A stretch of 53,580 nt of DNA from a virus (taxonomy: Duplodnaviria; Caudoviricetes), in the IMG/VR virus record IMGVR_UViG_3300015360_000055, positions 1 to 53,580 of that record, one strand, 5' to 3'. Shown here piece after piece: positions 3,961 through 53,580 of this stretch; within the stretch, counting starts at the first letter, position 1; every line of letters begins with the position of its first letter. The notes beneath the pieces were generated by a model. That model saw only the letters and a list, made by a program, of their open reading frames with translations, searched no databases and was not told the origin of the DNA. The position numbers and the translations under genes are program-made.

Positions 3961-4049
3961 GGAAGTAGGATACAATTTGTATGTCTCTTCCGTTGCGGTA
4001 TCAAATTTTGACTGCTGAGCAGTTCTATACGTTGGCTAAAGGAGAAGCT

Positions 4050-5183
4050 ATGGCGATTGATTTAGGGATTGATGAAGAAGTCGTTCTTCCACCAGAGTCC
4101 GTTACTGACGAAAAGAAAGTCGCAGTGAAGTTCGGGATCATCGGCGCAGGCCAAGGTGGGGGCCAGCTTGCTGACGCCTTCTGGCAGCTTGGATATCGCC
4201 GGGTCGCGGTGGTGAATACAACGACTCGGGACATGCAGCGTCTCCAGATCCCTGAAGCTAATCGTCACATTTTGAAGTCCGAAGGCGGCGCTGGGAAAGA
4301 TCCCGCTGTTGGAAAGAAGGCCGTCGAAGCCGAGACTGAAGAACTGATGCGACTCATCCAAGGTGCTTTCAAGAAAGACCTGGAGCACATTTTGATCTGC
4401 GTGGGTGCAGGTGGCGGCACCGGCTCCGGATCAGCTCTCCCTCTGATTAAGATCTGCAAAGAGTATTTGGTCTCCATCGGCGTTCAGAATCCTGAGAAGA
4501 AGGTCGGCGTGATCTGCACTCTACCCACTCGGGATGAGTCCTCGGCTGTCCAGCGCAACGCTCTTGAAACGATTCTCCCTCTTTGTGACCTGGCAGAAAA
4601 AGGTCAGCTCTCTCCTCTTGTGCTCGTGGACAACTCCCGCGTGCTCGCGATGTACGGCAAGGCATCGGTTGTGGATGTCTGGGGTAAGGCGAACAGAAAT
4701 ATTGCTTCACTCTTCAATGCCTTTAACGAATTGTGTGCTGCTGACGATGCGACCTGCCACGTTGTTTGCGATCCAAAGGACTATAAAACCGTACTTGAAG
4801 GCGGTATACTCGCATTTGGAAGGACCAAGCTTGAGAAGGTTGAAAAACCTACCGATGTTGCTGACGCCGTTCGCGATAACGTGAAGAAGGGTTTGCTCGT
4901 CGAGGGAATGGATCTTTCAAAAGCGAATGTCGGAGCAGGACTTCTGGTTTCAAACGGCGAAGGATTGGGAAGTGTCTCTCAGGAGTCTCTTGAGAATGCT
5001 TTCGGATCCTTGAACCGGTTGATGGCGCAAGGCCCTGAGACTAAACTTCACCGTGGAGTTTACGAAGCAGGAGCGGACGCTAAAGTTTATTTGTATACCA
5101 TTTTGGCCGGTATGGGACGCCCGTTGACACGGCTCCAGGAAATGCAATCAAAGGCTGGGGCTTCACACCCCATTGGAGGATAG
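4050..5183 (+). CDS. tubulin/FtsZ-superfamily GTPase (PhuZ/TubZ-like)
   Basis: GIIGAGQGG (T1 loop), GAGKDP, signature GGGTGSG, LVDN, DPKDY in the T7 position. ATG 4050 has SD AAAGGAG; the track start is 3981. Confidence 0.92.
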   Translation: MAIDLGIDEEVVLPPESVTDEKKVAVKFGIIGAGQGGGQLADAFWQLGYRRVAVVNTTTRDMQRLQIPEANRHILKSEGGAGKDPAVGKKAVEAETEELMRLIQGAFKKDLEHILICVGAGGGTGSGSALPLIKICKEYLVSIGVQNPEKKVGVICTLPTRDESSAVQRNALETILPLCDLAEKGQLSPLVLVDNSRVLAMYGKASVVDVWGKANRNIASLFNAFNELCAADDATCHVVCDPKDYKTVLEGGILAFGRTKLEKVEKPTDVADAVRDNVKKGLLVEGMDLSKANVGAGLLVSNGEGLGSVSQESLENAFGSLNRLMAQGPETKLHRGVYEAGADAKVYLYTILAGMGRPLTRLQEMQSKAGASHPIGG

Positions 5184-5532: not shown

Positions 5533-7629
5533 ATGCCGCTCATAGACGAGGGCGGACGATACAGGTCAGTAAGAACCGAAGATGAATACGCTGAGCTTTT
5601 CCTCCGGGAGATTGACCTCATCCCTCCCGAGGAAAGGCAATTTGCATTTGAAGTTCTCAACGATTTTCTTGTCCAGTCCAACAGTCCTGCCCTAGAAGTT
5701 TCATCTCAGAAACTGTACCGGACCCCACCAGTGAAGATGGAGGAGTTTCTAAAGAATCCCTTTTATCTAGGTGCGTTCCACAAGACGATCTTTGAAACGA
5801 TCAAAGAAGATCTGACCGAAGTATTCGAAGGCAGTTATGTGCAAGCCATCTGGGGTGGGTCACTGGGTGGGGGTAAATCAACGGCAGGCGTGATCTCGCT
5901 TGTCAGAATGGTTTACGAGGCGAGCTGCCTTCGAAATCCTCACGAGACCTACAGCATCTCATCTTCCGATTACATCATGTTCCCTGGAGTTTCATCGACC
6001 GAGGACATTGCCGAACGAAACATCTTGGATAAGGTTCGCTTCATCATCAACGACAGCGAATACTTTCAAACTTACTTCCGTCCCGAGAAAGACTCGATGG
6101 CGAAAGGTATTTTGTTTCCGAACAAGATTCTGATCCCCCCGGGAGCTTCGAACTCAGGACAGATCTTGGGCGGTAACGTCGCAGGACTCTTTATCGATGA
6201 AACCAACTTCTTTCAGAAAAGAAGTAACGGGCAAGTCAATCCACACGAGCAAAAAGAAAACGTGGAAGTCATTTACGAGACCATCGTTCGCCGAATGGAG
6301 TCTCGTTTCAAAAAGCTTGGGAGAATTCCAGGCATCATCGCTCTGGCTTCATCCAAGACCACTCCGAATGCTTTTACCGAACGAGTGATCTTAAAGTCGA
6401 TCAACAAGTCTAACGTCTTTGTCCGGGAGAGAAGTGTTTGGGAATCTCAAACCACCAACACGTTTTCCGGTAAAAGGTTTCGTGTTGCCATCGGGACTGA
6501 GACTCGGATGTCGAAATTCCTGGGTGACGAAGAGCCTGATCCAGAGGGAATGAAAGTCATCGATGTTCCGGAAGAGTTCCGAGAAGCATTCGAAGACGAC
6601 ATCGATGGATCCATTCGAGATCACGGCGGCTACGCGACCGTCTCCATCACTCCGTTCATCACGAGACGCGAGAAGATTTACGAATGCGTGGACAAGACTC
6701 GCACGCATCCATTCACTCAAGAAGTCTGGGAACAAAGCGTCCCAGGCAACATCCAGTGGGAAAAACTTTGTCGGTTGAAGTCGGATGGAACTTACGAGCC
6801 TCTTCATCATCCGTCAGCGCCGCGTCACGTTCATCTCGACTTGAGTAAGAATCAGGATAGAACCGGGCTCACAGTCTCGTGTATTGGTGGCTACGCTCCC
6901 GTGCAGCGGTGGGGGAAGACTGACATTGAGATGGCCCCTCACATTCATGTGGACTTCACCTTGGCGATCCAAGCCCCCCTCGGCGGTGAGATTATGTATG
7001 CTGAGATCCGAAAACTCATTTACGAATTCAGTCAGCATGGATTCTTCATCAAGGTGGTCACAGCCGATCAATACCAATCCTTGGCACTTCTCCAGGCCAT
7101 GCGTCAGCAGGGTTATAAGACGAAGATTGTTTCTGTCGAGCCCCCAGGTGGTCCTTACGAATCACTCAAGCAGGCGCTCTATGAGAATCGGCTTTCCATG
7201 TACAACTATCCTCCTCTGACGAAAGAATTGAGAGAGCTTCAGAAGAACTGGAAGACTGGGAAAGTCGATCACCCGGATTCGAGCCGAGGTGGTAGTAAAG
7301 ATATTGCGGATAGTTTAGCCGGGGTGATCGCCACTCTGACAGAATCCGCTTACGGAATTATGGATGCCCCCGTAACGAAGGGGATCTCAGAGATTGTCAT
7401 GCAAGATGACGATGCCTGGATCCTGGACGGAATGCTTTCGGTGGGCAACACGAGTGATCCTTCCATTCCTGAATGGCGTCAGAATGCGGAAGAGATCCTT
7501 CGCGAAGATGGACAAAACGTCAACTCTCACCCAGAGTGGAGACAGAATGCTGAGAAAGCTCTGGATCAAGAACAGGGTAACAATTATGATTGGAAAAAGA
7601 ATTTCCAAATGCCATTTGTGGTGGGTTGA
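5533..7629 (+). CDS. terL: terminase large subunit
   Basis: Walker A GSLGGGKST, Walker B LFIDE, coupling motif ASS, RNase H-like nuclease HLDLSKNQD, DQYQS, KVDHP...SKDIADS. Confidence 0.93.
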   Translation: MPLIDEGGRYRSVRTEDEYAELFLREIDLIPPEERQFAFEVLNDFLVQSNSPALEVSSQKLYRTPPVKMEEFLKNPFYLGAFHKTIFETIKEDLTEVFEGSYVQAIWGGSLGGGKSTAGVISLVRMVYEASCLRNPHETYSISSSDYIMFPGVSSTEDIAERNILDKVRFIINDSEYFQTYFRPEKDSMAKGILFPNKILIPPGASNSGQILGGNVAGLFIDETNFFQKRSNGQVNPHEQKENVEVIYETIVRRMESRFKKLGRIPGIIALASSKTTPNAFTERVILKSINKSNVFVRERSVWESQTTNTFSGKRFRVAIGTETRMSKFLGDEEPDPEGMKVIDVPEEFREAFEDDIDGSIRDHGGYATVSITPFITRREKIYECVDKTRTHPFTQEVWEQSVPGNIQWEKLCRLKSDGTYEPLHHPSAPRHVHLDLSKNQDRTGLTVSCIGGYAPVQRWGKTDIEMAPHIHVDFTLAIQAPLGGEIMYAEIRKLIYEFSQHGFFIKVVTADQYQSLALLQAMRQQGYKTKIVSVEPPGGPYESLKQALYENRLSMYNYPPLTKELRELQKNWKTGKVDHPDSSRGGSKDIADSLAGVIATLTESAYGIMDAPVTKGISEIVMQDDDAWILDGMLSVGNTSDPSIPEWRQNAEEILREDGQNVNSHPEWRQNAEKALDQEQGNNYDWKKNFQMPFVVG

Positions 7630-7634
7630 ATAAT

Positions 7635-9458
7635 ATGGGTATCGGTTCACAATCAGTTGAATTCATCCGGCAGTTCTTTCGTCAGACCGAATACGATCGC
7701 GCTCCTTACGTTCCGGCAACGGCCTCGGGCGGAATGTCTAACAGCTCCTCCTCATTCTCCTATGGCATGACAGGCGGAAGCCTTCACGGTGTCGCGGATT
7801 ACCTGCGACTGGATGCTGACATTGTTGCTCGCTACATGGATTATGAGGACATGGACGACTCACCCATAGTTTCAAGCTGTTACGATATTTACGCGGATGA
7901 TGCGACCCAGATCGATCCACAAACCGGGAAGTCTGTCTGGATTAACTGCGAGGACGAAGACATCCGAGCTGAGCTTGACACCATGCTTCATAAGCAGCTC
8001 CACATCGAGGAGCACATCTGGGGAATGACCCGGATGATTTGTAAGTACGGAAACCTTTTTCAAGAGATCGTGGCCAAGCAAGAGCAAGGCGTGATCGCAC
8101 TCAATACTTTATCTCCCCCCACGGTTCGAAGAATTCAGGTTCCAAAAGAAGTTGGCTACGATCCTGCCAAGCCTGAACAGAAGGAAATGAACTGGGACAC
8201 GCTCGGATACATTTACGATCCACGCGGAGTATTTAAAGTCACTACAAAGCAATTCATCGACGAGTTGAAATACAAAATTTCAGGTGATGTTCCCAAGGAT
8301 CGCCCAGCAGGTTGCGCCATATTCGAAGGCTGGGAAGTGGCTCACTACCGCCTCCTCGGAAAGACACCTGACTCTGCTTATGGATTCGGAATCTCCGAGC
8401 CTGCACGATGGATCTTCAAGCGTCTCTTGCTCCTGGAAGACTCAATCATTCTTCACCGTTTGACTCGTGCTCCGTCTCGTTACGCATTCTATGTGGACGT
8501 GTCAGGTGTGCCACCGAATGAGACCCCGGCCTATTTGAACCGCGTGAAGCAGGGCTTAAAGAAGTCCAAGTTTGTAAATCCAAACTCAGGGAAGATGGAT
8601 CAGAAGTACAACCCCATCTCTCAGGACGAGGATTTCTTCTTGGGTGTTCGCGACGGAAAAGAATCCACCCGCGTGGAAAGTCTTCAGGGTCCGATCTACG
8701 ATCACATCGAAGACATTAAGTTCTTTGAGAATAAATTGTTTGCTGCTCTCAAGGTTCCAAAGCCCTTCCTGACTTATGAAGAGTCTACCGCGAAGACCAA
8801 TCTTTCCGCAGAAGACGCTCGTTTTGCTCGCACCGTTCTCCGCATTCAGCGCGAGACCCGCAACGGACTCAAGCGTGTTTGTAAAGTTCATCTCGCCGCC
8901 AAAGGGATCAACCCAGACAATGTTGATTTCGAAGTCTGCATGTCTACTCCGAGCGCGATCTTCGAACTTGCGCAGCTTGAAATTAAAGCAGCAGAGCTTG
9001 ACCTTGCCGAGAAGTACACGGGCTGGGCTGACAAGTACTGGATCAAGACTCACATCTTGGGCTGGTCTGATGACCAGGTTCGCGAAGCAGGCCAGCCTGG
9101 TGAAGACGGCGGTTCGAGTGGCGGGAGTGGAGATCTCCAGGCTGCCCTCGATAAGCGCGGAACTCCAGGCTCAGGCGGGGGTGAGAAGTCCAGTTCATCG
9201 AGCCCTGAAAAAGAAACTGTCATCGCAACCGACGCCGATACGGTCGGAGCCGAAGTCGCATCGAAGGCAACACGCTCAGACATCATCATGAGCGCCGTAA
9301 AGAGAAACACGGAGAAGCTCCTGGAGCGTCTCGAAAAGTCTCAGCACAAAACGTCTGACAAATCTTCAGATAAGAAATTGAAAGAGATCGCTGAAGCATT
9401 GAAAGACTTGAGGCATACGGTTGATCGCACTCAGACTAGCGGAAGAGATCGTAAGTAG
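7635..9458 (+). CDS. portal protein, T4 gp20-like
   Basis: YEDMD..PIVSSCYDIYADD, LLEDSIILHRLTRAPSRYAFYVDV, EDFFL, IEDIKFFENKLFAALKVPK, EDARFARTVLRIQ. Confidence 0.95.
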   Translation: MGIGSQSVEFIRQFFRQTEYDRAPYVPATASGGMSNSSSSFSYGMTGGSLHGVADYLRLDADIVARYMDYEDMDDSPIVSSCYDIYADDATQIDPQTGKSVWINCEDEDIRAELDTMLHKQLHIEEHIWGMTRMICKYGNLFQEIVAKQEQGVIALNTLSPPTVRRIQVPKEVGYDPAKPEQKEMNWDTLGYIYDPRGVFKVTTKQFIDELKYKISGDVPKDRPAGCAIFEGWEVAHYRLLGKTPDSAYGFGISEPARWIFKRLLLLEDSIILHRLTRAPSRYAFYVDVSGVPPNETPAYLNRVKQGLKKSKFVNPNSGKMDQKYNPISQDEDFFLGVRDGKESTRVESLQGPIYDHIEDIKFFENKLFAALKVPKPFLTYEESTAKTNLSAEDARFARTVLRIQRETRNGLKRVCKVHLAAKGINPDNVDFEVCMSTPSAIFELAQLEIKAAELDLAEKYTGWADKYWIKTHILGWSDDQVREAGQPGEDGGSSGGSGDLQAALDKRGTPGSGGGEKSSSSSPEKETVIATDADTVGAEVASKATRSDIIMSAVKRNTEKLLERLEKSQHKTSDKSSDKKLKEIAEALKDLRHTVDRTQTSGRDRK

Positions 9459-9509: not shown

Positions 9510-12500
9510 ATGACACAAATGGCAGGCGCATCTATTCTTAATTTATTACTTGAGGACTGGATAACAGAAGTCCGAGTCGTTCGCGTTAAGAGAGTGCCTG
9601 CACGAATTCGTATGAAGCGTAAGCGTTACTACCGAAAGCGTAAGGCTCGCATCAAACGAATGTCTAGGATGAGACGTAGGAAGCCTCGGGCCAAAAGGCA
9701 AGCGAAGCGTAGAGCTAAGATTCGCAAACGAATGAATATTAAGCCAGGGAGCAGGAGGCGTATCCGGATGTCCTCTGCTGATAGATTTGGGAATCTTATG
9801 GAGGGTAAGCAAGTGAACGAAACCAAGGATTTGATTCGCGGATTTGAAAATGTTTCTCGTTTGGTAGACCAACTTGTTGGTGTGCTGGGGAAAGAGAAAG
9901 TCAACGAATCGCTTGGTAAGACCAACCACTCCCTGGTTGAAGATTTTTACCCCGCCGAATTGCCAGCCTTCGCCGACCATGGCGACATCATTTTACACGA
10001 AGACTTCGAAGCCATTCTTGGAATCAAGAAGCCCCTCCAGGAGAACAAGAAGCCTGCCGACTACTCCCAGATGAAGGCCGACGCGGTTGCCATGATCGCG
10101 AACATCAAGAGCGGAAAAGTCGATGAGAGCGAAGCTCTACAAATTTTGACTCTGATGACAGAAGGTCTCGACAAAGCTGTTGAGCGCGTCATCACCGAAA
10201 GCCCTGAGCTGGAAGAATCCGGAGAGACAAACGGCGATGATGACAGCGCCCAGTCTTCTTACGAAAAGCTCGGCCTTGAGCCGATGATGAAGAAGCTTGC
10301 AGCCAATCCTGCGCAACTGATCAAGAAGGTCGCTGACGATGACGGCGATGTAGAAGTCAAAGTCATGAAAGTGACCCACGACTCTCATAAGAACATGATT
10401 GGCATTCATCTCTATGATCCTAGCGAGCAAGAGATTGATCAAGCCGTCAACGATGCTTTCCGTGATGGATTCGAGTACGTCTGGGTCGAGTATCCGGCGA
10501 AGATGAACAACTCTGTCTCTGAAGCTAAAGGTTCACATAAGGTTGGATCTAAAGTTAAAGTGAACATGGGTGTTGATTCTGGCAAGACTGGCGTTGTTGT
10601 AGACAAGTCAGCCATCAAAACTAATGGTCGTGGAACTCCAGAAATTGAAGGCCACTACAAGCCGATGTCTACTGATGATGTCGCGATTAAGTTTGATCAC
10701 AATGGCAAGCACGCTGTTTACAGTAAGTCTCACTTGACTCCTGTTTCCGACAGCAAAGAAGAGGCCATCTCCGAGGCTGGTAAAAAAGGTCAGAAATGGC
10801 ACATCATTGACTGGGCTGGCAACAGCGTGTTCGGCGGTGATACTTTTGATTCGTTCGATGACGCAGAGGAATTCCTCAGCGTTAAGCTTGGCGACGATTA
10901 CGAAACTGATCGCGGAGAATACGATGTCGTGCAAGGTAAGACGACTGACAAGAAGTACCTCGATCCCAAGGATCCACGCGCCGGTAAAAAGATTAAGTCT
11001 GAAGCCGAAGATGAAAAGGTGAATGTTCGCGAGCTGAGCCCGATGGTTGTTCAGTATCTCTCTACTGCTCTTTGGTCATCCAACGATGGATCAAATGAGC
11101 AGGGCGGCGATCCACTTGATGACAACTATGACATCTCTGACATCGCTGAAGAGTCCGTCAAGAAGGCCACAGAAGATTGTGACTCCTTCTACGAGAAGGC
11201 CGAGAAGATCCTCGGAAAGAACGGTGACGAGATCACGGCCATTGAATCCGAATCACTGGGCCACGATTTCTGGTTGAGCCGTAACGGTCATGGTGCTGGA
11301 TTCTTCGATGCTGATTACCTCGATGAAGATATGAGAGATGCTCTTCAGGATTTAGCTAAAGAGTTTGGTGAGGTGAACGCTTACGTTGCAGACATCGGCG
11401 ATGAGCCAGGAAAGATCTTCATTGAATCTTTCGAGGCTGACACTGAAGAAGATCCACTCGTTGAGATGGCTCGTATCAATAAAGAAGCACTCTTGAATGA
11501 ATCCAAGAGTGAGATGGTGATGAAGATCAAGCAAATGGAAGCTGATCTCCACAAAGCCATGCACGAGAAGAAGATCTCCGCTCCAAACGGACAAGAGATC
11601 CCATTCAAAATCATGGGTCACGACGAAGCCGAAACCGTGAAGGAAAAGAGCGGCAAGGTATTTGACTACCCAGAGATGACTCACTTCAACATCGAGTCAT
11701 GGGAAACGATGAAGCTCTCCATGACTGCCGATGGCCGCATTATTCCAGAAGGCGTTGCCCTCAACGGCAAAGGCGTTCCTGCTGAAAAGATCATCGCTGA
11801 CGTTCTCAAGAACGTGAAGAACTGGTCCGCTCACGTTGCCAAACTCAAGAGCGAGAAGGCCACGAAGAAGGAAGCCAAGCAGAACGAAGCCAAGGCCGAT
11901 GATGGCGCTGTTGAAGTTGCCTATGACGGAACTGTTGATCGTGGTGAAGGTAAAGAACATGTGGCAGTGATTCGCAAGGGCGATAAAATCATTGATCGCA
12001 TCCATGGAAAGACAAAAGAAGCTGCTATATCCGCAGCTCAAGAAGCGGCCAAGACTCCAAAGGCAGAGTCCGCTCCTGTCACCGAGATGGCTCGCCAGAC
12101 CACTGATGTGGTTGCTGCTGCCTTCGTTGCAGGAGAGCCCAAGAAGGACAAGAACAACCACACTGATGGAAAGTCTTTCTTCCTTCATGGCAACGAGATT
12201 GCCAAGATTGAAAAGGGTCAGCTCTCGATCACGAACGCAGGCTGGGAAACCACAACGACTCGTGAGCGGTTGAACGGAATCATGGTTGCTGCTGGTGTCG
12301 GTAAGAAGGTCTCCCAGGAAAAGGGCAAGCAGATGCTTGACGGCAAAGAGTGGGACGGTGAGTGGACCAAGGTGGGCAAAGTAAAGCCTCCTACGCCTCC
12401 AACCCCAGACAAGCCAGTCAAAGAAGCTGTGGCAGATCCAAAGTCCGTCAAGGGCAAGGATATGACCCCCGCTAATAAAGCCGAGATGGGCAAGAGTCTT

Positions 12501-14885
12501 CCAGGCAAGTTCGTTCGCTCAGGCGATACCGACACTGCCAAGAAGATCATGAAGCATCATGAAAGCATCAGTGAGAATAAGGGTGATGGCAAGCCACGCA
12601 TCATGACCACTTACGACATCGTCACCCCGGAGTCTGCTTCCCGTGGTGATGTTGCTGAGAACGGTTGGGAAGATGAGATCGGACACGACTGCACACCTGA
12701 CGAACATGATATCGAAGACGGAAAGACTGTTGTCGATTTAGCGGTCGAGTTTCTGAAAGATAAGGGCGTACTTGAGCCGTCATCAACTCAGTTTCATACC
12801 GGGATTTGGTATAACACCATAGATCCAGAAACTGATTACCAGGACGGTTCTGAAAAGAACTACGCCTATCATCTGTACGACTTTACTCCAGAGCAGGAGA
12901 AGCAAGTCTATGGTGGCGTCATGGGTAAAAAGGAAGCTAAAAATCCTGAAACCCGTAGCGGCGACCTCACCGAGAAGACGGGCGACGGCTACACCTTCAC
13001 GGATAAAGAATCTCAGATGGAATCTCTGGCGGAATACATTGACGAGCACGTCACGTTGGAGACTGAGTACAGAACTGAACACGAAGACTCCGGCAATGAT
13101 TATCTCGATGCCATGATGGATTCGGTAAATACCGAAGAATGTCTTGGTATGAACATGACCAATAACGTTCTTTGGGCACCGCTTGAAGCGGCTAAGGATG
13201 CTGGTATTCCAGTGAAGGAATTGGATCAGATTTTAAAAGATCTTGTCACTGCTAAAGCTTCTGGTGTTTTTTATCCAGACAACGCAGTCTCTTCCACTGG
13301 CCAGCTTGGAGAAGTTGAGACTCAGCTTGACAGCATGGGCGGGACCGTAAACGGTAAAAAGGTAGATGATGTTTTCGAGATTTTATCCGCTGGCCTTGAT
13401 GAGAAAGATAAGAAGGCTGTCGCACGGAAGCTTCAAGAGGCTTACTGGGATGGCAAATCAAATTACGCTTATGGCGACGCTGCCTACGACACTTGGATGT
13501 TCGTCGTTGATGAAGACGCTTTGATCGACGCCATTAATGAAAAACTGAAAGAAACTGGAAAGCCTGAACTTAATCTAGATGGTGAGACTGAAGAGTCCAC
13601 TCAGGTTGAGTCTGTCCAGAAGAAGTTGAAAGAGTCTCACTCTGACTCAGATCTCCAGGGCATGAGCGCATCTGCTTTGCTGAAGCTGATCCGCAGTAAG
13701 GAAGTCACTTACGCTGAAGTGGACAAGGCTCTTGAGAAGGAAAAAGACTTCCGGAAGCTTGACTGGATCGGTGACCAACTTGCGAAAGACGATCTGAAGA
13801 AGCCCGGCACTCCAGTTGATGAAGCCAGTGCAGAAAAAAACTTTGAAGTCTGGATTAAGACTCCAATGCCATCCACTACCGAAGTAGATGCAAAGTTTGC
13901 CACCAAGGCTGAAGCTGAAGCCCACATGGCCGAGCGGAAAGCTAAAAATCCTGATTGGAAAATCTGGATCGAAACAACTTCTGGACGAGCTAAGATGTCA
14001 AAGGCATTCCCAGAAGCTGGAGAGACGGACGACACCGGTCAGACAGAAGCTGCGCCAGTCGATCAAGAGCTTAAGAGCAGTGTTGAGACTTCGGTTGACC
14101 ATAAGAAATGGAAGGCTAAGCACAAGGCTCCAGTTCAAAAGGAATCGCTCGCAGTGGAGATCGACGGACAGAAGTTCGGCCTTACCACTGAAGAACTCAA
14201 CGAAGAAGGCATCGTTGCCGATCTCGCAGCGGCCATCGGTGGTTCGTCTGAGCCAGAGAAGCTCGAAGAACTCAAGACTGAGATCGCCGATTCCATGGAC
14301 ATGGACAGTGGTCGATACTCTTCATGGGGAAAGTCGGGAAGCTTTGAAGCTGATGGGACTGAGTACCAGTTCATCATCAGCGAAGACGAAGCCGAGAAGA
14401 TTGCCAAAGACATCGTCACTCAGGATCTTGAGGACGACCCATATGAGATGTTCAGTCATGACTTTTTGAATGAGCATCTTTATGTGGGTGACACTGACAA
14501 GCGTTTGATCGCAAACGACGATGCCGACGCACGCATGGACGGCATGAGCGATGAAGACATCATCGATGAAGTTGAAATGCAAGATGAGTACGAAGCTGCT
14601 GAGGGCAAAGCAAAGGAAAAAATCCTTGATAAAGCCAAAGAGCAGATCATGAGCACGCACTACGACTCAGTTTATGAGCAGCTCGACAAGGATCCAGTGG
14701 GATACTTTGAAGACATGGGCGGGGCCGAAATGGTCAAAGACATGATCGAGAAAAATCTTCTGAGTGTGGACGTGAAGGCAGCCGCAGAGGAAGCCGTCAG
14801 GATCGACGGTTGGGCGCACTTCTTGTCACACTATGACGGAAACTACGAAACCACTCCGGGTGGCGTTGTCTACTTCAAGGAGTAA
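9510..14885 (+). CDS. 1791-aa modular acidic protein, putative prohead-core/internal polyprotein
   Basis: Between portal and protease, where T4 has gp67/gp68; Arg-rich N-terminal segment; many small modules separated by [ILV]-x-E motifs. Confidence 0.7.
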   Translation: MTQMAGASILNLLLEDWITEVRVVRVKRVPARIRMKRKRYYRKRKARIKRMSRMRRRKPRAKRQAKRRAKIRKRMNIKPGSRRRIRMSSADRFGNLMEGKQVNETKDLIRGFENVSRLVDQLVGVLGKEKVNESLGKTNHSLVEDFYPAELPAFADHGDIILHEDFEAILGIKKPLQENKKPADYSQMKADAVAMIANIKSGKVDESEALQILTLMTEGLDKAVERVITESPELEESGETNGDDDSAQSSYEKLGLEPMMKKLAANPAQLIKKVADDDGDVEVKVMKVTHDSHKNMIGIHLYDPSEQEIDQAVNDAFRDGFEYVWVEYPAKMNNSVSEAKGSHKVGSKVKVNMGVDSGKTGVVVDKSAIKTNGRGTPEIEGHYKPMSTDDVAIKFDHNGKHAVYSKSHLTPVSDSKEEAISEAGKKGQKWHIIDWAGNSVFGGDTFDSFDDAEEFLSVKLGDDYETDRGEYDVVQGKTTDKKYLDPKDPRAGKKIKSEAEDEKVNVRELSPMVVQYLSTALWSSNDGSNEQGGDPLDDNYDISDIAEESVKKATEDCDSFYEKAEKILGKNGDEITAIESESLGHDFWLSRNGHGAGFFDADYLDEDMRDALQDLAKEFGEVNAYVADIGDEPGKIFIESFEADTEEDPLVEMARINKEALLNESKSEMVMKIKQMEADLHKAMHEKKISAPNGQEIPFKIMGHDEAETVKEKSGKVFDYPEMTHFNIESWETMKLSMTADGRIIPEGVALNGKGVPAEKIIADVLKNVKNWSAHVAKLKSEKATKKEAKQNEAKADDGAVEVAYDGTVDRGEGKEHVAVIRKGDKIIDRIHGKTKEAAISAAQEAAKTPKAESAPVTEMARQTTDVVAAAFVAGEPKKDKNNHTDGKSFFLHGNEIAKIEKGQLSITNAGWETTTTRERLNGIMVAAGVGKKVSQEKGKQMLDGKEWDGEWTKVGKVKPPTPPTPDKPVKEAVADPKSVKGKDMTPANKAEMGKSLPGKFVRSGDTDTAKKIMKHHESISENKGDGKPRIMTTYDIVTPESASRGDVAENGWEDEIGHDCTPDEHDIEDGKTVVDLAVEFLKDKGVLEPSSTQFHTGIWYNTIDPETDYQDGSEKNYAYHLYDFTPEQEKQVYGGVMGKKEAKNPETRSGDLTEKTGDGYTFTDKESQMESLAEYIDEHVTLETEYRTEHEDSGNDYLDAMMDSVNTEECLGMNMTNNVLWAPLEAAKDAGIPVKELDQILKDLVTAKASGVFYPDNAVSSTGQLGEVETQLDSMGGTVNGKKVDDVFEILSAGLDEKDKKAVARKLQEAYWDGKSNYAYGDAAYDTWMFVVDEDALIDAINEKLKETGKPELNLDGETEESTQVESVQKKLKESHSDSDLQGMSASALLKLIRSKEVTYAEVDKALEKEKDFRKLDWIGDQLAKDDLKKPGTPVDEASAEKNFEVWIKTPMPSTTEVDAKFATKAEAEAHMAERKAKNPDWKIWIETTSGRAKMSKAFPEAGETDDTGQTEAAPVDQELKSSVETSVDHKKWKAKHKAPVQKESLAVEIDGQKFGLTTEELNEEGIVADLAAAIGGSSEPEKLEELKTEIADSMDMDSGRYSSWGKSGSFEADGTEYQFIISEDEAEKIAKDIVTQDLEDDPYEMFSHDFLNEHLYVGDTDKRLIANDDADARMDGMSDEDIIDEVEMQDEYEAAEGKAKEKILDKAKEQIMSTHYDSVYEQLDKDPVGYFEDMGGAEMVKDMIEKNLLSVDVKAAAEEAVRIDGWAHFLSHYDGNYETTPGGVVYFKE
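12945..12957 (+). repeat. dispersed motif copy 2, CCTGAAACCCGTA
   Basis: Read directly; inside the 1791-aa CDS, in a linker. Confidence 0.85.
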
Positions 14886-15183
14886 TATGGTACTCGTTGC
14901 CGGTCAAAACAATGCGATAGCCTTTACTGGAAATCCATCTGGCCAGACCGATGTCAGCGAGATCGCTAAACTCGTTTCCTTCCATTTCGTAGGCTTCAAA
15001 GATGTCCTCAAAGAACATGTGAACAGCCGCTTCAAAAGAGATGGGCTCTCCCTGCATGGCCTGAATTTGCTCAAGCATGACCGGGTAGAGATTCTCGTTC
15101 CATCCAAGAGGGTGGCCCCAGTAGGGGTTTCCATCAACGTTGTAAAGCAGCATGTTTTTCCACGATATTTTAGTCATACTCAC
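14875..15183 (-). CDS. hypothetical protein, lone minus-strand gene in the head operon (start 15183 or 15177)
   Basis: Fills the gap between two + genes; protein-like composition; 11-nt convergent overlap with the 1791-aa gene. Confidence 0.65.
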   Translation of the reverse strand: MSMTKISWKNMLLYNVDGNPYWGHPLGWNENLYPVMLEQIQAMQGEPISFEAAVHMFFEDIFEAYEMEGNEFSDLADIGLARWISSKGYRIVLTGNEYHITP

Positions 15184-15232
15184 ATTCTCTCATTAACCAT
15201 TACGTTTTGTAATTGGGTCAGGAAAGACACAT

Positions 15233-15643
15233 ATGGATGCCAATAAGATTGCCAAGTTAGCCAAAGACCTGTCTCGCCCAGGACACAAGTCTGTAGCCAT
15301 TGCTTCTGCGCTCGGGATCCACTCGGACCAGATCCCCAATCTGATTGCGCGAGAGATTCGGAACGGAAATTTACTGGGTCTTTCTCAGGAAGAGCTGACC
15401 AATCTCTCGAAGAATTTAGGAGATGAAAGTCTTTCGAAAGTGATCGCTGCGAAAACCGGAAATAAAACGTCTGCTCGCAAAGAAGACAAAACGTCACGCA
15501 CTTCTAAACAACTTGCAGATAGTCTTGAAGCTTTGCACAAGAGGCTATACGATAGAGTTGTAAAGGGTAAACCTAAGGCTAAGCTGGTCAATGGTAAGAA
15601 AACCAAGATCCCAGGATTCGCGTATCACTTTAGGAAAGAGTAA
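15233..15643 (+). CDS. basic hypothetical head-region protein
   Basis: 136 aa, Lys-rich; stop abuts the protease ATG. Confidence 0.7.
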   Translation: MDANKIAKLAKDLSRPGHKSVAIASALGIHSDQIPNLIAREIRNGNLLGLSQEELTNLSKNLGDESLSKVIAAKTGNKTSARKEDKTSRTSKQLADSLEALHKRLYDRVVKGKPKAKLVNGKKTKIPGFAYHFRKE

Positions 15644-17437
15644 ATGAAAAAAGTTCTGGTCGATCTCGCAGGGAGTATCAAGCTTCAGCTTACTGAAAGC
15701 ACCGAAGGCGGAAAGCATTTAGTTGCTCGCGGTGAATTCGGTCGCGCTGATGTACCCACGCAAAATCGCCGGGTCTACCCGCGTAAAGTTTGGGAACGCG
15801 AAATTCAACGCATCAATGAGGCCATCGCATCCGGCAAAGTTCTTGGTGAACTCGATCACCCAGCCGATGGAAAGACTTCTCTGAAGCGCGTCTCGCACAT
15901 CATGACCGGTCTCCACATGCAGGATGACGGTGTGATCATTGGCGAAGCAAAAATTCTTGATAACGAATATGGCCGTCAGTTGAAGTCCATTCTTGAAGCA
16001 GGCGGCGCTATCGGTGTTTCGTCTCGCGGTATGGGTTCAACAGCCATGGGTGAAGACGGCTCGGAAGTTGTTCAAGAAGACTATCAATATATGACCCACG
16101 ACTTCGTGGCGGATCCAGCAGTTCTGACTTCGTATCCGAAGTTTCAGACTGAAGTTCGATGGATCAAGCCAGACTCGGTGGTGACAGAGAATTCCTCAAA
16201 GGAGACTGTGATGAATAAGGTTGAGCAAAAGATTGAGGCAGTGGCTCCAGTCGTTGAGACAAAAGAAAAAGAACAGGACAACAACGCTGTTCCGGCTGAA
16301 GTGAAGCCAGAAGAAGTGAAGCCTCCTGAAGCAAAGATTGAAGAGCCAGCAGCAGAAGTTCTTGCTCCAGTTGCCGAGAGCCCAGCTCTTGAAGCAACTG
16401 CTGAAGCGAACATCAAAGCTGAAGCAAAAGATCCACATGGAGCTGAAGATCTTGAGCCTTCCAAGCATGACGAGCCTTCGGACGCCAAGTACAAAGAATT
16501 GAAGAAAAAGAAACTTGCCGGGGACGAAAGTCTCAAGGGCAAGACTGATCTCGAATTGGCAACTATGGCGGGGATGAAATCTATGCACGGCGAAGCTATC
16601 GTCACCGATGAGGCTCAGAAACTTCGTGAATCTATCAAAGCTGAACTCCAGGCTGACCCTGCTTTTGCTGCTGCTCAAATTGCGCTTGAGAGCATCAAGA
16701 CTGCCGTTCGTCCCTTCCTTCTCCCTGAAGCGACTGCTTCTGAGAAAGATGAAGAAATTAATTCTCTCAAAGTTGAAAACACTGCGCTCAAAAATAAGAT
16801 CGTAGAGCTTGGCGCTGTGGCCAACCGTTTGGGCGCTCATCTTCACTTCGAGCGCAAGATCGCCGAGATGAAAGAAGATCGCGAAGAGATGGCCGCAATT
16901 GTCGGCAAACAAAAACTTGAAAGCGTGAAACACGTTGACTCCATCCTTGTTGAAGCAAAGAAGACTCTTGAGTCTCGCAAGGAAGATAAACGCGCAAACG
17001 CCCTGGAAACAAAGCGTCTGGAATCGAAGTTCGAAGCCAAGATGAAAGCTTTGGAAGACCAGAACAAAAAATTAGAAGAGTCTCTGAAGAGCACTGTGTC
17101 TCTCAGCAAAGAACTAGGTATTAAGCTTTACATCTCGGAAAAAACGCGTGGCAATCCGAATGCAAAGAAGATTAAGGAACTTTGCGAAGGCAAAACAGAA
17201 CGTAAAGATGTTGATAGCATTCTTGCACGATTTGCTGTTGCCCCGTCCGCTGGTGAAGAATACAATGCTATTAAGAGAAGGTTTGAAAAATTAGCAGGAA
17301 CATCTCTCGTTGAAGATCAACTGAAGGAGACGGGGGCAAATCGCGCTGCTTCAGGTTCTGATGAAGAGGGTGTTCTAGGTGAGATGACAGACTTGTTTCC
17401 GGGTGCGACCTTGGACCAGGTCAAAGCACTGATGTAA
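15644..17437 (+). CDS. prohead protease (T4 gp21-like) fused to a coiled-coil scaffold
   Basis: NRRVYP, LGELDHP, RVSH, GEAKIL, GVSSRGMGS, DFVADP, then about 400 aa of E/K-rich coiled coil. Confidence 0.93.
   Translation: MKKVLVDLAGSIKLQLTESTEGGKHLVARGEFGRADVPTQNRRVYPRKVWEREIQRINEAIASGKVLGELDHPADGKTSLKRVSHIMTGLHMQDDGVIIGEAKILDNEYGRQLKSILEAGGAIGVSSRGMGSTAMGEDGSEVVQEDYQYMTHDFVADPAVLTSYPKFQTEVRWIKPDSVVTENSSKETVMNKVEQKIEAVAPVVETKEKEQDNNAVPAEVKPEEVKPPEAKIEEPAAEVLAPVAESPALEATAEANIKAEAKDPHGAEDLEPSKHDEPSDAKYKELKKKKLAGDESLKGKTDLELATMAGMKSMHGEAIVTDEAQKLRESIKAELQADPAFAAAQIALESIKTAVRPFLLPEATASEKDEEINSLKVENTALKNKIVELGAVANRLGAHLHFERKIAEMKEDREEMAAIVGKQKLESVKHVDSILVEAKKTLESRKEDKRANALETKRLESKFEAKMKALEDQNKKLEESLKSTVSLSKELGIKLYISEKTRGNPNAKKIKELCEGKTERKDVDSILARFAVAPSAGEEYNAIKRRFEKLAGTSLVEDQLKETGANRAASGSDEEGVLGEMTDLFPGATLDQVKALM
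16211..17437 (+). CDS. probable nested in-frame scaffold protein (internal start)
   Basis: AAAGGAG-actgtg-ATG at 16211, in frame, directly after the protease domain. Confidence 0.6.
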   Translation: MNKVEQKIEAVAPVVETKEKEQDNNAVPAEVKPEEVKPPEAKIEEPAAEVLAPVAESPALEATAEANIKAEAKDPHGAEDLEPSKHDEPSDAKYKELKKKKLAGDESLKGKTDLELATMAGMKSMHGEAIVTDEAQKLRESIKAELQADPAFAAAQIALESIKTAVRPFLLPEATASEKDEEINSLKVENTALKNKIVELGAVANRLGAHLHFERKIAEMKEDREEMAAIVGKQKLESVKHVDSILVEAKKTLESRKEDKRANALETKRLESKFEAKMKALEDQNKKLEESLKSTVSLSKELGIKLYISEKTRGNPNAKKIKELCEGKTERKDVDSILARFAVAPSAGEEYNAIKRRFEKLAGTSLVEDQLKETGANRAASGSDEEGVLGEMTDLFPGATLDQVKALM

Positions 17438-17477
17438 AAGGTCGTTACAGAAAACACAAGGAGTGAGAAATAAACGT

Positions 17478-18974
17478 ATGGAACAGCGTAAACTTCAAGA
17501 AATGAAGTCGGACCTCTCTAACGAGGGATTTGTCCGCAACCCACAACGTGCGGCTTTGGTCGAACGTTGGAACAAATGGATGCCACAGAAAGATGCACAC
17601 GGTCGTGCTCTTGATATGAATCCTTATCGCAAGTATTGCTTGGCTCAGTTGTTCGAGAATCAACTCGGCGAACTCAAGCAATTCCGCGAGAAGCACCTTT
17701 TGGGCGAAGACACCACCACGGTGAATTCGGCACCATTCATCAAGTACACCTTCCCGCTTCTTCGCCGGGTGTGGCCTTCGTTGATTGCCCCAGAAATCGT
17801 TGGCATTCAGCCAATGTCTGCTCCTGTCGGCGCTGTATTCTACTTCGAGTTGAAGTATGGCGACAACAAGGGCGCAGTGGCTTCTGGCGACAAGCTCGTC
17901 AAGAACTTCAACCGCGCTTACTCTTCTGAGTACATCGACGGTGAATCCCTCGGAACCGGCGACGGCGTTGCAACCGTCTTCGCGTCCACCCTCGACTGGA
18001 CTCCAGTTCGCGCAAGCACTGTCACTGTGACTGCTGGTTCGATCTCTGGAACTGATAACGGATCTGGCGTCATCGCTGGCACCGGCATCTCCGGAACCGT
18101 CAACTACGTCTCGGGCGCAATCAGCGTGACCCTCTCCGCAGCTCCTGCTAACGGCGTGGCTGTCAGCGCGACCTACCAGTACAACACTGAAGGTTCGAGC
18201 AAGATCCCAACGGTCAACGTGGACATCGCACTGGTTGCTGTGACCGCGAAGAGCCGCAAGATCAAAGCACTTTGGTCCAGCGAAGCTGCTGATGACTTGA
18301 AGGCACTCCACGGTGTGGATGCTGAACAAGAACTCGTAGCTGGTGTTGGTTCTGAACTCGCTCTCGAAATCGATCGTGAGATCATCGACGATATCAAGAA
18401 CGGTGCAACCGGCGCGTCCACGACCTACAACATGACCGTCCCATCGGGCGTTCGTGAGTTGGATCACATCCGTGGGATGTTGACCCCCCTCACCCTGATC
18501 TCTAACCAGATCGGCAAGAACACTCTTCGTGGACCAGCCAATTTCATGGTGATGAGCTATGACATTGCAGCTCAGATCGAGCAGCTCTCGACTGATGGTT
18601 TCTTCCGTCCTATCTTCGCAGGGGACGCAGAAGCTATGGCCAAGGTTGAAGGTCCACAGACCTTCGGCATCATGAAGATGGGCACCGTGATGAGCCGCTA
18701 CATGGCTTACAAGGATCCTTATCTTGAGTCCAACAAGATCGTCATGGGTTACCATGGTTCGAGCTTCGTTGACCAAGGTTACATCTGGGCTCCATACGTC
18801 CCGCTGCAAATCAGCAGCACGTTCCTGGATCCAAACGATTTCAAATTCCGTAAGGGGATTCGTACTCGTTATGCTAAGTTGCTTGCCCGTTCGGAATTCT
18901 ACGGAGTTCTCTCGCTCAGCAACTTGACCACGCTCTCTCCTGGTTCCTTCGGAGCCGCTTCTACCCTCTACTAA
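17478..18974 (+). CDS. major capsid protein, T4 gp23-like
   Basis: AQLFENQ, PLLRRV.PSLIA.EIVGIQPMSAPVG.VFY, TAKSRKIKALWS.EAADDLKALHGVDAEQEL, EIDREI, APYVPL, GIRTRYA. AAGGAG upstream favours ATG 17478 over GTG 17463. Confidence 0.96.
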   Translation: MEQRKLQEMKSDLSNEGFVRNPQRAALVERWNKWMPQKDAHGRALDMNPYRKYCLAQLFENQLGELKQFREKHLLGEDTTTVNSAPFIKYTFPLLRRVWPSLIAPEIVGIQPMSAPVGAVFYFELKYGDNKGAVASGDKLVKNFNRAYSSEYIDGESLGTGDGVATVFASTLDWTPVRASTVTVTAGSISGTDNGSGVIAGTGISGTVNYVSGAISVTLSAAPANGVAVSATYQYNTEGSSKIPTVNVDIALVAVTAKSRKIKALWSSEAADDLKALHGVDAEQELVAGVGSELALEIDREIIDDIKNGATGASTTYNMTVPSGVRELDHIRGMLTPLTLISNQIGKNTLRGPANFMVMSYDIAAQIEQLSTDGFFRPIFAGDAEAMAKVEGPQTFGIMKMGTVMSRYMAYKDPYLESNKIVMGYHGSSFVDQGYIWAPYVPLQISSTFLDPNDFKFRKGIRTRYAKLLARSEFYGVLSLSNLTTLSPGSFGAASTLY

Positions 18975-53300: not shown

Positions 53301-53580
53301 GCATCCACACCGTCAAGATAACTTCGGTTGCGAACGTAATGGATATTTTTGGGTATGAAGTCGTAAGTTCGTCTTCAACCATTAAGATTCAGCCAGGTAC
53401 TTACTACGCTAACTCGAAAGCAATGGTGCTCGCATCTCAGCAGTCCATTGTTCACAATACCACTTTCGAGTCTGGCACTCTCGGGTCTCGCGGTGGTCGT
53501 GTTAGCGTTTATCTTAAGTCTGACGGGACCATTGGCAAGGCTGTTCAACCCACAAACGCATCACAGTTAAATTTAACTTC
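50369..53580 (+). CDS. large tail fibre/receptor-binding protein, truncated by the window end (not in ORF track)
   Basis: GGAGGTGGAG SD, GTG 50369; MAIYSTTSIDYEYIKVRWQEPYVSNALNRKMFGLLPKGIYSGF; S/T/G-rich; frame open at every spot check through to ...DGTIGKAVQPTNASQLNLT. Confidence 0.8.
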   Translation, partial: MAIYSTTSIDYEYIKVRWQEPYVSNALNRKMFGLLPKGIYSGFVIGAGGLSTRDIQITTGSVSGGLGTGLTGGYVSGNFDETTSYSIAIHQNSSGWSTTVSMPPGSLPAHLDATGQNGNRVYAVIDVNYNLNQATTANFLLVNSTQIDQNPSYIVIGYCDVPSNPGTPLDASMFGYNDSNYPRLTPLATPQKAGFMPTSVWSQLNQFFLWESLCLSERDPNDNNVIQIYPSQKVNSVNNKRVYTYILANIASKFPRSSAGLYAGGVANDQLTKLNITTGVISGAHAITGNTTFAIPSVNGVASSFQVGIVALDSGDNINVTYGSVYASSALALLDDNLPVVGKSLMQICLFLVQTNAGGVIQPLGASSIYDRRPFLNVGGGASGGAGSLLVQYLSDFENSIYSFDLPYDFSTDASTLLDTVNSTGAYDLVNSVFSLSAAARTMITLNLLSTDFLNNEQDLTDAALQVSWLSGSVDTAATYQLSRDGGISYQTVTMTQLSESTDFTGRLIFTDTDTLSTLSTYVSGNIDSTQPFDNASNQQLAQVFTISGESVFKQAEIQVNKVGSPGGSLTLQLVRDSAGSPSSVATDIVSVSSPIAISGLSAGVNVIQATLPTTVLKAGTYHLVMVVDATYKASWVSTTTELQLRTDASAPSISVAKQYNGTTWTALTTESASYVLRGRSMDLRLKITSSTASKLSGFNVMYSPDASVIVPQQQQQTIVFAGSTNPSSFTLTNFAPNANTLKVYEADTGKVFVYPAFSLNGQVITFPTNTFNLPGQTVTLVFDQTQGGVVDQSGANATNIATQTAQLTALGSQLDDLKRVSLSMINVPNTTIVGRAQIPDLSNDLAVRMGIDRFQGFSLVPIQNEFGPAGQPVFGALNDDRGLVRFVGNWAQFNSTGGGNRPESQTNGDYCEITFYGTGLNLLIAATNFDTSATYAVDGGSAVSFGVPGTASGVIAGRLYNQNQVFTAAGLQGLALGIHTVKITSVANVMDIFGYEVVSSSSTIKIQPGTYYANSKAMVLASQQSIVHNTTFESGTLGSRGGRVSVYLKSDGTIGKAVQPTNASQLNLT

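Follow-up and report, generated by a model that had tools for sequence, protein, structure and literature searches.

The prohead protease of phage T4, gp21, has the cleavage consensus [L/I]-x-E. T4 directs its internal proteins into the head by a capsid targeting sequence, which gp21 cuts off; one of them, IPI, blocks a restriction enzyme, as stated in passages of a T4 review that also mentions a gp21 cleavage logo and 'LIE-9' (PMC9026906). The prohead proteases of T4, phiKZ, 201phi2-1 and SPN3US are all described as cutting after Glu in a short motif (PMC5694885, in its treatment of these enzymes); for SPN3US the motif is A-x-E with Ser preferred directly after the cut (position P1'), and long propeptides are cleaved several times (PMC10052503, in the passages on processing). 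A separate class, the polyvalent proteins, joins many unrelated domains in one chain encoded beside packaging and head genes and is proposed to travel with the DNA (PMC5512222, in the sections cited here). In this work we describe a gene in a linear 53,580-bp virus record of IMG/VR (IMGVR_UViG_3300015360_000055; completeness estimate ~36%), the whole of which is called the window. The open reading frame (ORF) 9510..14885 (+) starts with ATG and encodes a modular polyprotein of 1791 residues, P0001. This protein is probably a precursor that is loaded into the prohead and cleaved at the joints between its modules by the head protease. That its products are injected as anti-defence or takeover proteins is plausible, and we put it forward more tentatively.

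P0001 shares with polyvalent proteins the chain of many unrelated domains, the location beside head genes and the existence of solo versions of its domains; ArdA is among the domains listed for that class, and its authors draw an analogy to viral polyproteins released by proteolysis (PMC5512222, main text). Release from polyvalent proteins is proposed to occur through embedded peptidase domains (MPTase and others), and enzymes are their typical content, whereas Pfam and NCBIfam scans found no peptidase family match in P0001 or its relatives. The joints of P0001 carry instead the motif class of a separate, trans-acting S77 protease, most of its modules are small, non-enzymatic units, and the family is defined by a conserved leader with an Arg-rich and a helical part.

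The T4 internal proteins IPI, IPII, IPIII and Alt occur, like P0001, together with a head protease of the S77 family and with a head of the portal and Gp23 type; they are small cargo, vary among relatives, include an antirestriction protein and lose an N-terminal part after Glu (PMC9026906, in the passages on head proteins). When Asp replaces this Glu in the targeting sequence of IPIII, processing is blocked (PMC9026906). T4 uses one gene per cargo, each with a targeting sequence of ~10 residues, whereas P0001 presents about a dozen modules behind a single leader of ~236 residues, with predicted cuts between the modules. The first N-terminal motifs of P0001 are LLE-D at residues 13-15 and ITE-V at 18-20 (a hyphen before the last letter marks the predicted cut), and a short targeting peptide of ~10 residues of the T4 type is not found there; Pfam and PHROG scans likewise gave no sequence similarity of P0001 to T4 internal proteins. 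The phiKZ protease has Ser, Ala or Gly at position P3. In the ejection proteins of SPN3US and phiKZ, as is predicted for P0001, the gp21-type cut falls after x-x-Glu with Ser preferred at P1'; their N-terminal propeptides of 111-254 residues hold several motif copies and are cut several times, and their internal proteins are believed to pass into the cell (PMC10052503, PMC5694885, as far as the passages cited go). Each of those proteins yields one mature product, with Ala at P3 in SPN3US, whereas P0001 has Val, Ile, Leu or Met at P3 and many predicted products from one gene. PHROG and Pfam scans of P0001 found no phiKZ or SPN3US ejection or inner-body family, and fold searches on a mostly low-confidence model gave nothing specific. 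Judged from its sequence, P0001 appears to be set apart from the known systems by the lack of an embedded peptidase, by the long shared leader, by small and mostly orphan modules, and by joints that match a trans-acting head protease. Full-text literature searches, whose scope did not extend to the supplementary domain lists of PMC5512222 (which may list a module), returned no description of such a phage polyprotein; a 2021 jumbo-phage overview mentions polyvalent proteins only in passing.

In the proposed course of events, the polyprotein would be made late, alongside the portal, protease and capsid proteins, and its conserved N-terminal part, a 98-residue Arg/Lys-rich segment followed by a helical leader of ~140 residues, would bring it into the prohead core. 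The phage's own S77 (T4 gp21-type) protease would then cleave after [V/I/L/M]-x-E, mostly before a small residue, both in the leader and at the joints, and about a dozen small proteins of 5-40 kDa would be released. The leader would be shredded like a long propeptide, and the very basic 12-kDa N-terminal piece may remain with the DNA. Together with the DNA, the released modules would pass out of the capsid and be active from the very start of infection; some of them at least would counter host defence, as the ArdA antirestriction modules of relatives suggest. We infer all four elements for P0001, namely cleavage, packaging, injection and function. A cargo polyprotein of this kind had been proposed in the sequence-only reading, and it is partly supported by the head-gene context, the shared leader with shuffled modules, the motif at joints and maturation sites, the ArdA domains of relatives, a module common to a polyprotein and a relative's protease-scaffold protein, and solo homologues in early or leading regions; the two families matched by P0001 itself are both annotated as 'unknown function'.

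The genomic setting is that of a T4-type head block. That reading had also placed the 1791-residue gene between portal and protease, and the Pfam and PHROG matches bear this out, with the qualification that two small ORFs separate it from the protease, so the two genes are not adjacent. The head-gene context is kept in all four loci in which it is visible (the window and the related loci L002-L004): the portal gene lies directly upstream of the polyprotein in 3/3 related loci (L002, L003, L004), and protease and capsid genes follow in the 2/2 that reach that far.

The relatives of P0001 are the proteins P0003-P0007 and P0010-P0016, besides the three loci; P0002 is the database gene call for the window's own gene, starting at Met97. 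The family is rare, with about a dozen metagenomic relatives. All family matches are metagenomic, range in length from 139 to 2222 residues, and have 7 representatives among 1.84 billion proteins. A query with the whole protein returned 8 proteins at an expectation value (E) <=0.001, including P0002 and two proteins, P0008 and P0009, that share only module F (modules are lettered as in Table 1) and lack the leader; with the leader (residues 97-240) as query, the same threshold gave 4 proteins, P0002 again among them. No near-identical DNA was found in cultured phages, no relative was found by a single-protein scan of viral contigs, and a metagenome contig scan with alignment A7 gave none among its 205 pattern matches.

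The N-terminus unites this family. Two shared parts are visible in alignment A1, an Arg/Lys-rich stretch of ~98 residues and then a helical region of ~140 residues. The first of them, module A, is kept in frame in P0005, P0013, P0014, P0016, P0006/L004, P0007, L002 and L003, and in each locus that could be read (L002, L003, L004) the upstream DNA encodes the basic segment in frame. In comparison with these three loci, 40-43 codons show synonymous-only differences versus 24-33 residue-changing ones, and the Arg-rich segment is under purifying selection. Because it is kept in frame with mostly synonymous change, we take the basic segment to be translated despite the database start at Met97, and the same observation rules out that the Arg-rich part is untranslated leader DNA. 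The Arg-rich N-terminus noted from the sequence is thereby confirmed, with an isoelectric point (pI) of 12.0 and in-frame conservation among relatives.

Beyond the leader, the family is a mosaic. Ungapped homology blocks divide P0001 into 13-15 segments, which agree with the module coordinates drawn independently in the sequence-only reading; its estimate of about ten domains was roughly right. The blocks differ in order and in neighbours among relatives. Module J, for instance, has different neighbours in each of P0004, P0005, P0006 and P0010, and module E stands at position 554 of P0005 and position 1918 of P0007. Compared across about a dozen relatives, the leader is conserved and the modules are shuffled. 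In the 149-kb locus L004, the modular chain is split over two genes, 9980-13207 and 13219-16065, which lie 11 bases apart.

P0001 holds several unrelated domains in one chain, with two independent family matches: module I to PF23790/phrog_554 and module F to phrog_1915. The PF23790 match covers residues 883-942 and scores 37.8 bits with the whole protein and 43 bits with module I alone (cut-off 27). Searches of each module against Pfam (E 0.5) and PHROGs (E 0.1) gave matches for F and I only, the remaining rows being sub-threshold noise; NCBIfam gave no match for P0001, and a sequence search of the Protein Data Bank (PDB) gave chance-level rows only, with E of at least 0.098. Family scans recognised no conflict or effector domain in P0001. 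A Protein Atlas search with the leader returned no usable match; with module O, the ArdA cluster scored only 0.76 and unnamed viral clusters 0.89, which is a lead only.

The suggested anti-defence role draws on the ArdA domains of relatives and on gene neighbourhoods, and not on the domains of P0001 itself. ArdA (PF07275) was detected in four relatives, P0003, P0004, P0010/L003 and P0021/L004, with 59.7-75.9 bits versus a cut-off of 27, and it forms the C-terminal end of the polyproteins P0003, P0004 and P0010/L003 and of P0021. P0001 itself has no such match; only the C-terminal half of its last module, O, aligns beyond the ArdA domain, with the region that follows it in P0003, P0004, L003 and L004. 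The opening peptide of module O, SLAVEIDGQKFGL, is common to the ArdA-bearing modules of relatives. Its N-terminal half is unlike the ArdA relatives and is shared, in place of the N-terminal part of ArdA, with P0024, a protein of 404 residues with an N-terminal DUF7249 domain (41% identity to module O).

Solo genes matching module F or I are present in 44 phage records. Module I corresponds to gene 03 of CHF7, a T7-like Pseudomonas phage, where it lies among the early genes and precedes the gene for RNA polymerase. Module F is a solo gene in Klebsiella phage FBKp34, within a promoter-rich cluster of small genes; it lies inside the terminal repeats of Caulobacter phages, forms metagenomic proteins of 128-132 residues (P0025, P0026), and is found on plasmids, once beside ArdC and TraG (Paraburkholderia plasmid). 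It is also present near the C-terminus of P0009, a repeat-rich protein of 2125 residues that lacks the leader (residues ~1768-1891; 36% identity, E 2.3e-17), so module F is not confined to phage polyproteins. The statement that several modules exist as stand-alone phage genes therefore holds clearly for two of ~13 modules, weakly for K (three phage records, E 1e-5 to 2e-4) and in part for O, through P0024; modules E and O, each used singly as a query, gave no match in cultured phages.

What sets the joint motif apart from chance is its specificity and placement, not its density. Fifteen [VIL]-x-E joints had been listed from the sequence, and all are present in P0001 at the places given (Table 1). 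Family-wide statistics were computed on 14 proteins totalling 16,911 residues: P0001, P0003, P0004, P0005, P0007, P0012-P0016, P0021, P0023 and the full L003 and L004 polyproteins. The set excludes P0002, P0006 and P0010, whose sequences are part of rows already counted; P0008 and P0009, with only module F in common and no leader; the fragment P0011; and P0024-P0026. Near-identical motif contexts were counted once, a de-duplication that does not free the counts of shared ancestry. In this set, [ILVM]xE[AS] occurs at 94 unique sites versus 58.0±7.3 in shuffles (z 5.0), and S[ILV]xE[ASGT] at 17 unique sites versus 5.7±2.4; these two were the only enriched patterns among those tested. Counts stay flat when Glu is exchanged (shuffle means in second place: [ILVM]xD[AS], 41 vs 45.3; [ILVM]xQ[AS], 20 vs 16.2; [ILVM]xK[AS], 49 vs 50.9; S[ILV]xD[ASGT], 1 vs 4.4), when the hydrophobic P3 is exchanged ([AGST]xE[AS], 71 vs 71.6; [DEKR]xE[AS], 83 vs 95.5) and when the motif is reversed (51 vs 58.1). 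An unbiased scan of P3-x-P1-P1' combinations placed L.ES, V.EA, M.ES and F.EA at the top among abundant patterns.

The placement of the motif points in the same direction. In P0001, 10 of the 12 homology-defined junction zones have an [ILV]xE within 8 residues, versus 5.6 by random placement (P ~0.01). Across the family, this holds for 114 of 218 unique break points versus 71.9 expected (p 3e-9), or 153 of 286 versus 91 when redundant break points are kept, and the controls are flat ([ILV]xD, 49 vs 57.0; [ILV]xK, 65 vs 59.3; [AGST]xE, 91 vs 89.4). The association of motif and module border, as first read from the sequence, is borne out beyond random placement, both in P0001 and family-wide. 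Joints in relatives typically read ESVxE-A/G/T. At 18 candidate sites in P0001 the codons vary, so the conserved feature of the joints is the peptide and not a DNA repeat; joints as DNA-level recombination linkers are ruled out by these differing codons.

These statistics bear on the view that P0001 is an uncut polyvalent protein (Iyer et al. 2017) that acts whole, with [VIL]xE[AS] reflecting only flexible linkers rich in Glu, Ser and Ala. Such proteins, with 2-15 domains, phage late-gene contexts and in some cases ArdA, are described, and the authors cite N4 virion RNA polymerase and plasmid TraC1/Sog as examples of full-length transfer (PMC5512222, in the sections on these proteins). Linker composition nevertheless fails to explain why P1 is Glu and not Asp, Gln or Lys, why P3 is hydrophobic only, and why the reversed motif is flat, and the conserved sites at which capsid protein and protease are predicted to be cut bear the joint motif too. 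An embedded peptidase domain was not found in family scans, and a folded chain of 197 kDa would need to pass a portal and tail channel given as ~30 Å in a passage of the T4 review (PMC9026906). We consider an uncut chain improbable.

Heads of the T4 type are matured at sites before the Gp23 core and near the N-terminus of the protease. The pattern noticed in the window at the N-termini of both proteins holds up: LGE-D lies at capsid residues 80-83 and LTE-S at protease residues 16-19. The capsid motif HxLGE-DTTTVN stands 11 residues ahead of the Gp23 Pfam core, with LGEDTTTVN invariant in 3/3 loci, and the protease N-terminus LQLTE-S/G is conserved in 3/3 loci (alignment A3). LGE-D and LTE-S/G are the predicted maturation sites of the capsid protein and protease. 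With its hydrophobic P3, Glu at P1 and small P1', the joint motif of P0001 matches the published class of this protease family. The eight motif sites within ~140 residues of the leader resemble the multiply cleaved propeptides of SPN3US. The window's protease has its protease domain in about residues 1-180 and a long acidic and coiled-coil C-terminal extension that is scaffold-like. In L003, the protease gene (14151-16763) carries an insert of ~270 residues (residues ~340-600) that is absent from the window protease and from L004, and a 229-residue module of the polyprotein P0004 (residues 717-940) is 46% identical to it (E 1e-51). The same module is thus carried by a prohead core component, as judged by its family.

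In T4, the core genes gp67 and gp68 lie between portal and protease. The polyprotein gene sits at that place and could, on this ground, encode a prohead core or scaffold accessory like T4 gp22, gp67 and gp68, which would be shredded at Glu sites and its fragments expelled before DNA packaging, leaving no injected effectors. T4 core proteins, which the T4 review lists in part of its text (PMC9026906), are reported as cleaved into short fragments that exit the head (PMC5694885, in the passage cited), and a leader with eight sites looks like a propeptide meant for degradation. In P0001, though, the sites lie at module joints and not throughout the modules: F and I, both confidently folded in the predicted structure, have no strict-type site inside. 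Exchange of unrelated modules between close relatives, and the presence of ArdA, would be unexpected for a scaffold; single-gene homologues of the modules lie in the early regions of unrelated phages and on plasmids; and the protease gene already bears a coiled-coil extension that is scaffold-like. We judge this explanation as improbable as the uncut chain.

The N-terminal 98 residues, with their pI of 12.0 and strong conservation, would also fit DNA binding inside the head, and P0001 could then be an internal structural or DNA-organising protein, charge-neutralising in the manner of an 'inner body' and perhaps cleaved, that stays in the capsid for DNA packing or ejection mechanics. Giant phages do hold large internal protein masses of undefined role (PMC10052503, in its remarks on internal proteins). 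Most of the modules are acidic (pI 4.1-5.1 for 10 of the 18 predicted cleavage products) and variable among close relatives, which suits a structural role poorly, and ArdA, going by its Pfam name and a passage of PMC5512222, works in the host as an antirestriction domain. A structural role is less probable still than the two preceding explanations. Least probable of all is a large cytoplasmic, multi-domain protein outside the virion that merely sits in the head-gene block, with a motif association that is a by-product of the linkers' shared ancestry: gene position alone is no proof of packaging, and linkers common by descent inflate counts even after de-duplication of contexts, but gene order is the same in every locus that shows context, the prohead protease-scaffold protein of one relative has a polyprotein module inserted in it, and the motif agrees with the specificity class of the neighbouring protease family (PMC5694885, in the part cited).

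Several observations weigh against a prohead-loaded and injected cargo polyprotein. P0001 has 44 [ILV]xE motifs, compared with 32.2±4.9 in 2000 shuffles, of which 22 reach 44, and its density is 2.46 per 100 residues versus 1.81 from composition; the ORF 5533-7629, the protease and the ORF 44780-49660 have a density equal to or above this, and we therefore rejected overall motif density as evidence. The junction test within P0001 is only moderate in strength: zone 799-802, the G/H junction, has no [ILV]xE, and another junction has its site 12 residues off. Family-wide, 104 of the 218 break points have no site within 8 residues, many of them being indel ends of ungapped alignments. In the AlphaFold2 model described below, only 295 of the 1064 modelled residues reach a predicted local distance difference test score (pLDDT) of 70; of 24 sites, 4 are located in 10-residue blocks whose mean is at least 70, among them VRE-L at the border of module F. 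The second gene of L004 encodes P0021, with 948 residues and ArdA at its end, and has neither the Arg-rich nor the helical leader, so the leader is dispensable for some module sets or P0021 is loaded in another way. In P0007, a leader-like region lies mid-protein (weak match, E 4.9e-4). No module of P0001 has an annotated function in the Pfam, PHROG and NCBIfam scans, both matched families being of 'unknown function'; the ArdA profile PF07275 matches neither P0001 nor module O even at E 0.5, and a Foldseek search with the model of module O (mean pLDDT 72.5) gave no match. Finally, the head block of Listeria phage LIS04 (Thornevirus), a cultured relative by its capsid protein, has no comparable gene between portal and protease.

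AlphaFold2 was run on residues 97-1160 with a 12-row alignment and returned a mean pLDDT of 53. Confidence is high for three parts only: the leader helices (73-88), module F (84-94) and module I (~90). The model from this alignment left modules C, D, E, H and J without resolved structure and gave only part of G and K. Foldseek searches of the PDB with this mostly low-confidence model returned nothing at E<=0.001. A wide search with VIA-align gave generic three-helix-bundle matches for the leader, with Z up to 10.1, and barely tested modules F and I. For module O, the best VIA-align match was a helical hairpin at Z 5.7, with no ArdA match; T7 Ocr came at rank 32 with Z 4.3, which is not meaningful.

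If the reading of P0001 as an injected, protease-cleaved precursor is true, many proteins would reach the cell before any phage gene expression, by way of one gene, one loading signal and the existing protease. The T4 rule of one tag per cargo and the polyvalent-protein idea would both extend to a DNA-phage polyprotein that is cleaved in trans. Some ten small orphan modules would become candidates for new anti-restriction or takeover functions, with the sister ArdA modules as a positive control, and the joint motif and leader together could guide the design of capsids loaded with foreign proteins. A bolder and distinctly speculative version, which we think more doubtful than injection itself, is plug-and-play loading. 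A conserved handle, the Arg-rich segment with a three-helix leader, would bring any string of modules into the prohead, as would insertion of modules into the protease-scaffold protein, and the head protease would act as a universal 'unzipper' at [V/I/L/M]-x-E before a small residue. Recombination at joints could then add, drop or reorder modules without new targeting signals, because the protease would unzip any joint. The roughly ten orphan modules would form a reservoir of first-minute anti-defence or takeover proteins, and the 12-kDa fragment of pI 12 would serve as a DNA counter-ion in the manner of protamine and reach the cell attached to the DNA.

Table 1. Genes of the head block in the window, modules of the polyprotein P0001 and its [VIL]-x-E joints (a hyphen before the last letter marks the predicted cut).
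Feature	Window position	Strand	Observations
T4-type portal protein gene	7590..9458	+	PF07230 E 4.6e-61; phrog_213; directly upstream of polyprotein gene
Modular polyprotein P0001	9510..14885	+	1791 residues; ORF and translation; relatives P0003-P0007, P0010-P0016, L002-L004
Module A, residues 1-98	9510..9803	+	Arg/Lys-rich N-terminus; 12.1 kDa; pI 12.0; ends NLME-G
Module B, residues 99-236	9804..10217	+	conserved helical leader; 8 [ILV]xE sites; ends ITE-S / LEE-S; in all relatives (alignment A1)
Module C, residues 237-338	10218..10523	+	ends VSE-A; common to P0010 and the P0015 C-terminus; no family match
Module D, residues 339-422	10524..10775	+	all-beta; the KOW/SH3-like module of the sequence-only reading; six predicted strands, pLDDT <50; ends ISE-A; no relative, no family match
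Module E, residues 423-508 (KWHIIDWAGN...)	10776..11033	+	ends VRE-L; common to P0005 and P0007 at differing positions; no cultured-phage match
Module F, residues 509-652 (GHDFWLSRNGHGAGFFD)	11034..11465	+	phrog_1915 E 8.9e-22; ends LVE-M; pLDDT 84-94; solo genes in phages and plasmids
Modules G and H, residues 653-859	11466..12086	+	end VTE-M; G common to P0003, P0004, P0007; G/H border near residue 800 without [ILV]xE
Module I, residues 860-972	12087..12425	+	Kyano_Gp96 domain PF23790; phrog_554 E 2.8e-14; ends VKE-A; pLDDT ~90
Module J, residues 973-1022	12426..12575	+	50-residue basic module; ends ISE-N; 78-87% identity in P0004 and P0005; also in P0006 and P0010
Module K, residues 1023-1155 (YDIVTPESASRGD...)	12576..12974	+	ends LTE-K; common to P0003 and P0015
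Module L, residues 1156-1375	12975..13634	+	acidic block; ends LKE-S; common to P0005 and P0021
Modules M and N, residues 1376-1545	13635..14144	+	VDE-A at 1436-1438; no relatives, no family matches; borders from motif only
Module O, residues 1546-1791	14145..14882	+	C-terminal module; mean pLDDT 72.5; C-terminal half aligns with relatives' ArdA-bearing C-terminal modules
137-residue ORF	14833..15246	+	overlaps final 53 bases of polyprotein gene in another frame; no family match
Conserved 136-residue basic protein	15233..15643	+	between polyprotein and protease; 51% identity to L003 ORF at same place, E 5e-46; no family match
S77 prohead protease, 597 residues	15644..17437	+	PF03420, 61.4 bits vs cut-off 27; phrog_207 covers residues 16-510
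Gp23-type major capsid protein	17463..18974	+	PF07068 E 7e-67; match begins at residue 94
Listed joints in P0001 (residues)			VNE-T 102-104; VNE-S 131-133; LVE-D; LQE-N; ITE-S 228-230; VSE-A 336-338; ISE-A 420-422; LVE-M 650-652
Listed joints in P0001 (continued)			LNE-S; VTE-M 857-859; VKE-A 970-972; ISE-N 1020-1022; LTE-K 1153-1155; LKE-S 1373-1375; VDE-A 1436-1438

The 137-residue ORF that overlaps the end of the polyprotein gene is 30% identical over 115 residues to an ORF at the same place in L003 (E 8e-15), and it may be a real overlapping gene because of that similarity. The closest cultured relatives of the capsid protein are found in Bacillus phage SP-15 and in LIS04, at 32-35% identity, and an uncultured 595-kb phage falls in the same range. 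A second short motif, P-G-E-Q-R-[A/S]-M, recurs in the C-terminal halves of P0003, P0004, P0005, P0010 and P0013, mostly ahead of the ArdA module, with variants such as PGTARAMRG, PGEERGMMG and TGQQRAF; P0001 lacks this motif.

Upstream of the portal gene, at ~2.4 kb from its start (7590), the window encodes a tubulin/FtsZ-family protein of 400 residues (3981-5183, +; PF00091 E 1.4e-14, with Tubulin_2 under its cut-off); this phage of ~150 kb, with its T4-type head, would then have a tubulin of its own. Just ahead of the portal gene lies an ORF of 698 residues (5533-7629, +) that has no Pfam or PHROG match and 3.15 [ILV]xE per 100 residues versus 1.79 expected. At the corresponding position, L003 (4538-7705) and L004 (5007-8126) have longer ORFs of 1039-1055 residues that contain LAGLIDADG homing-endonuclease (intein-like) inserts; an intein splicing domain is also present in the portal gene of L003. 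Toward the far end of the window are two giant ORFs, one of 1626 residues at 44780-49660 (+) and one of more than 1070 residues at 50369-53578 (+), which is open at the end of the record. The first of these has a Glu content of 11.1% and 3.63 [ILV]xE per 100 residues versus 2.98 expected from composition.

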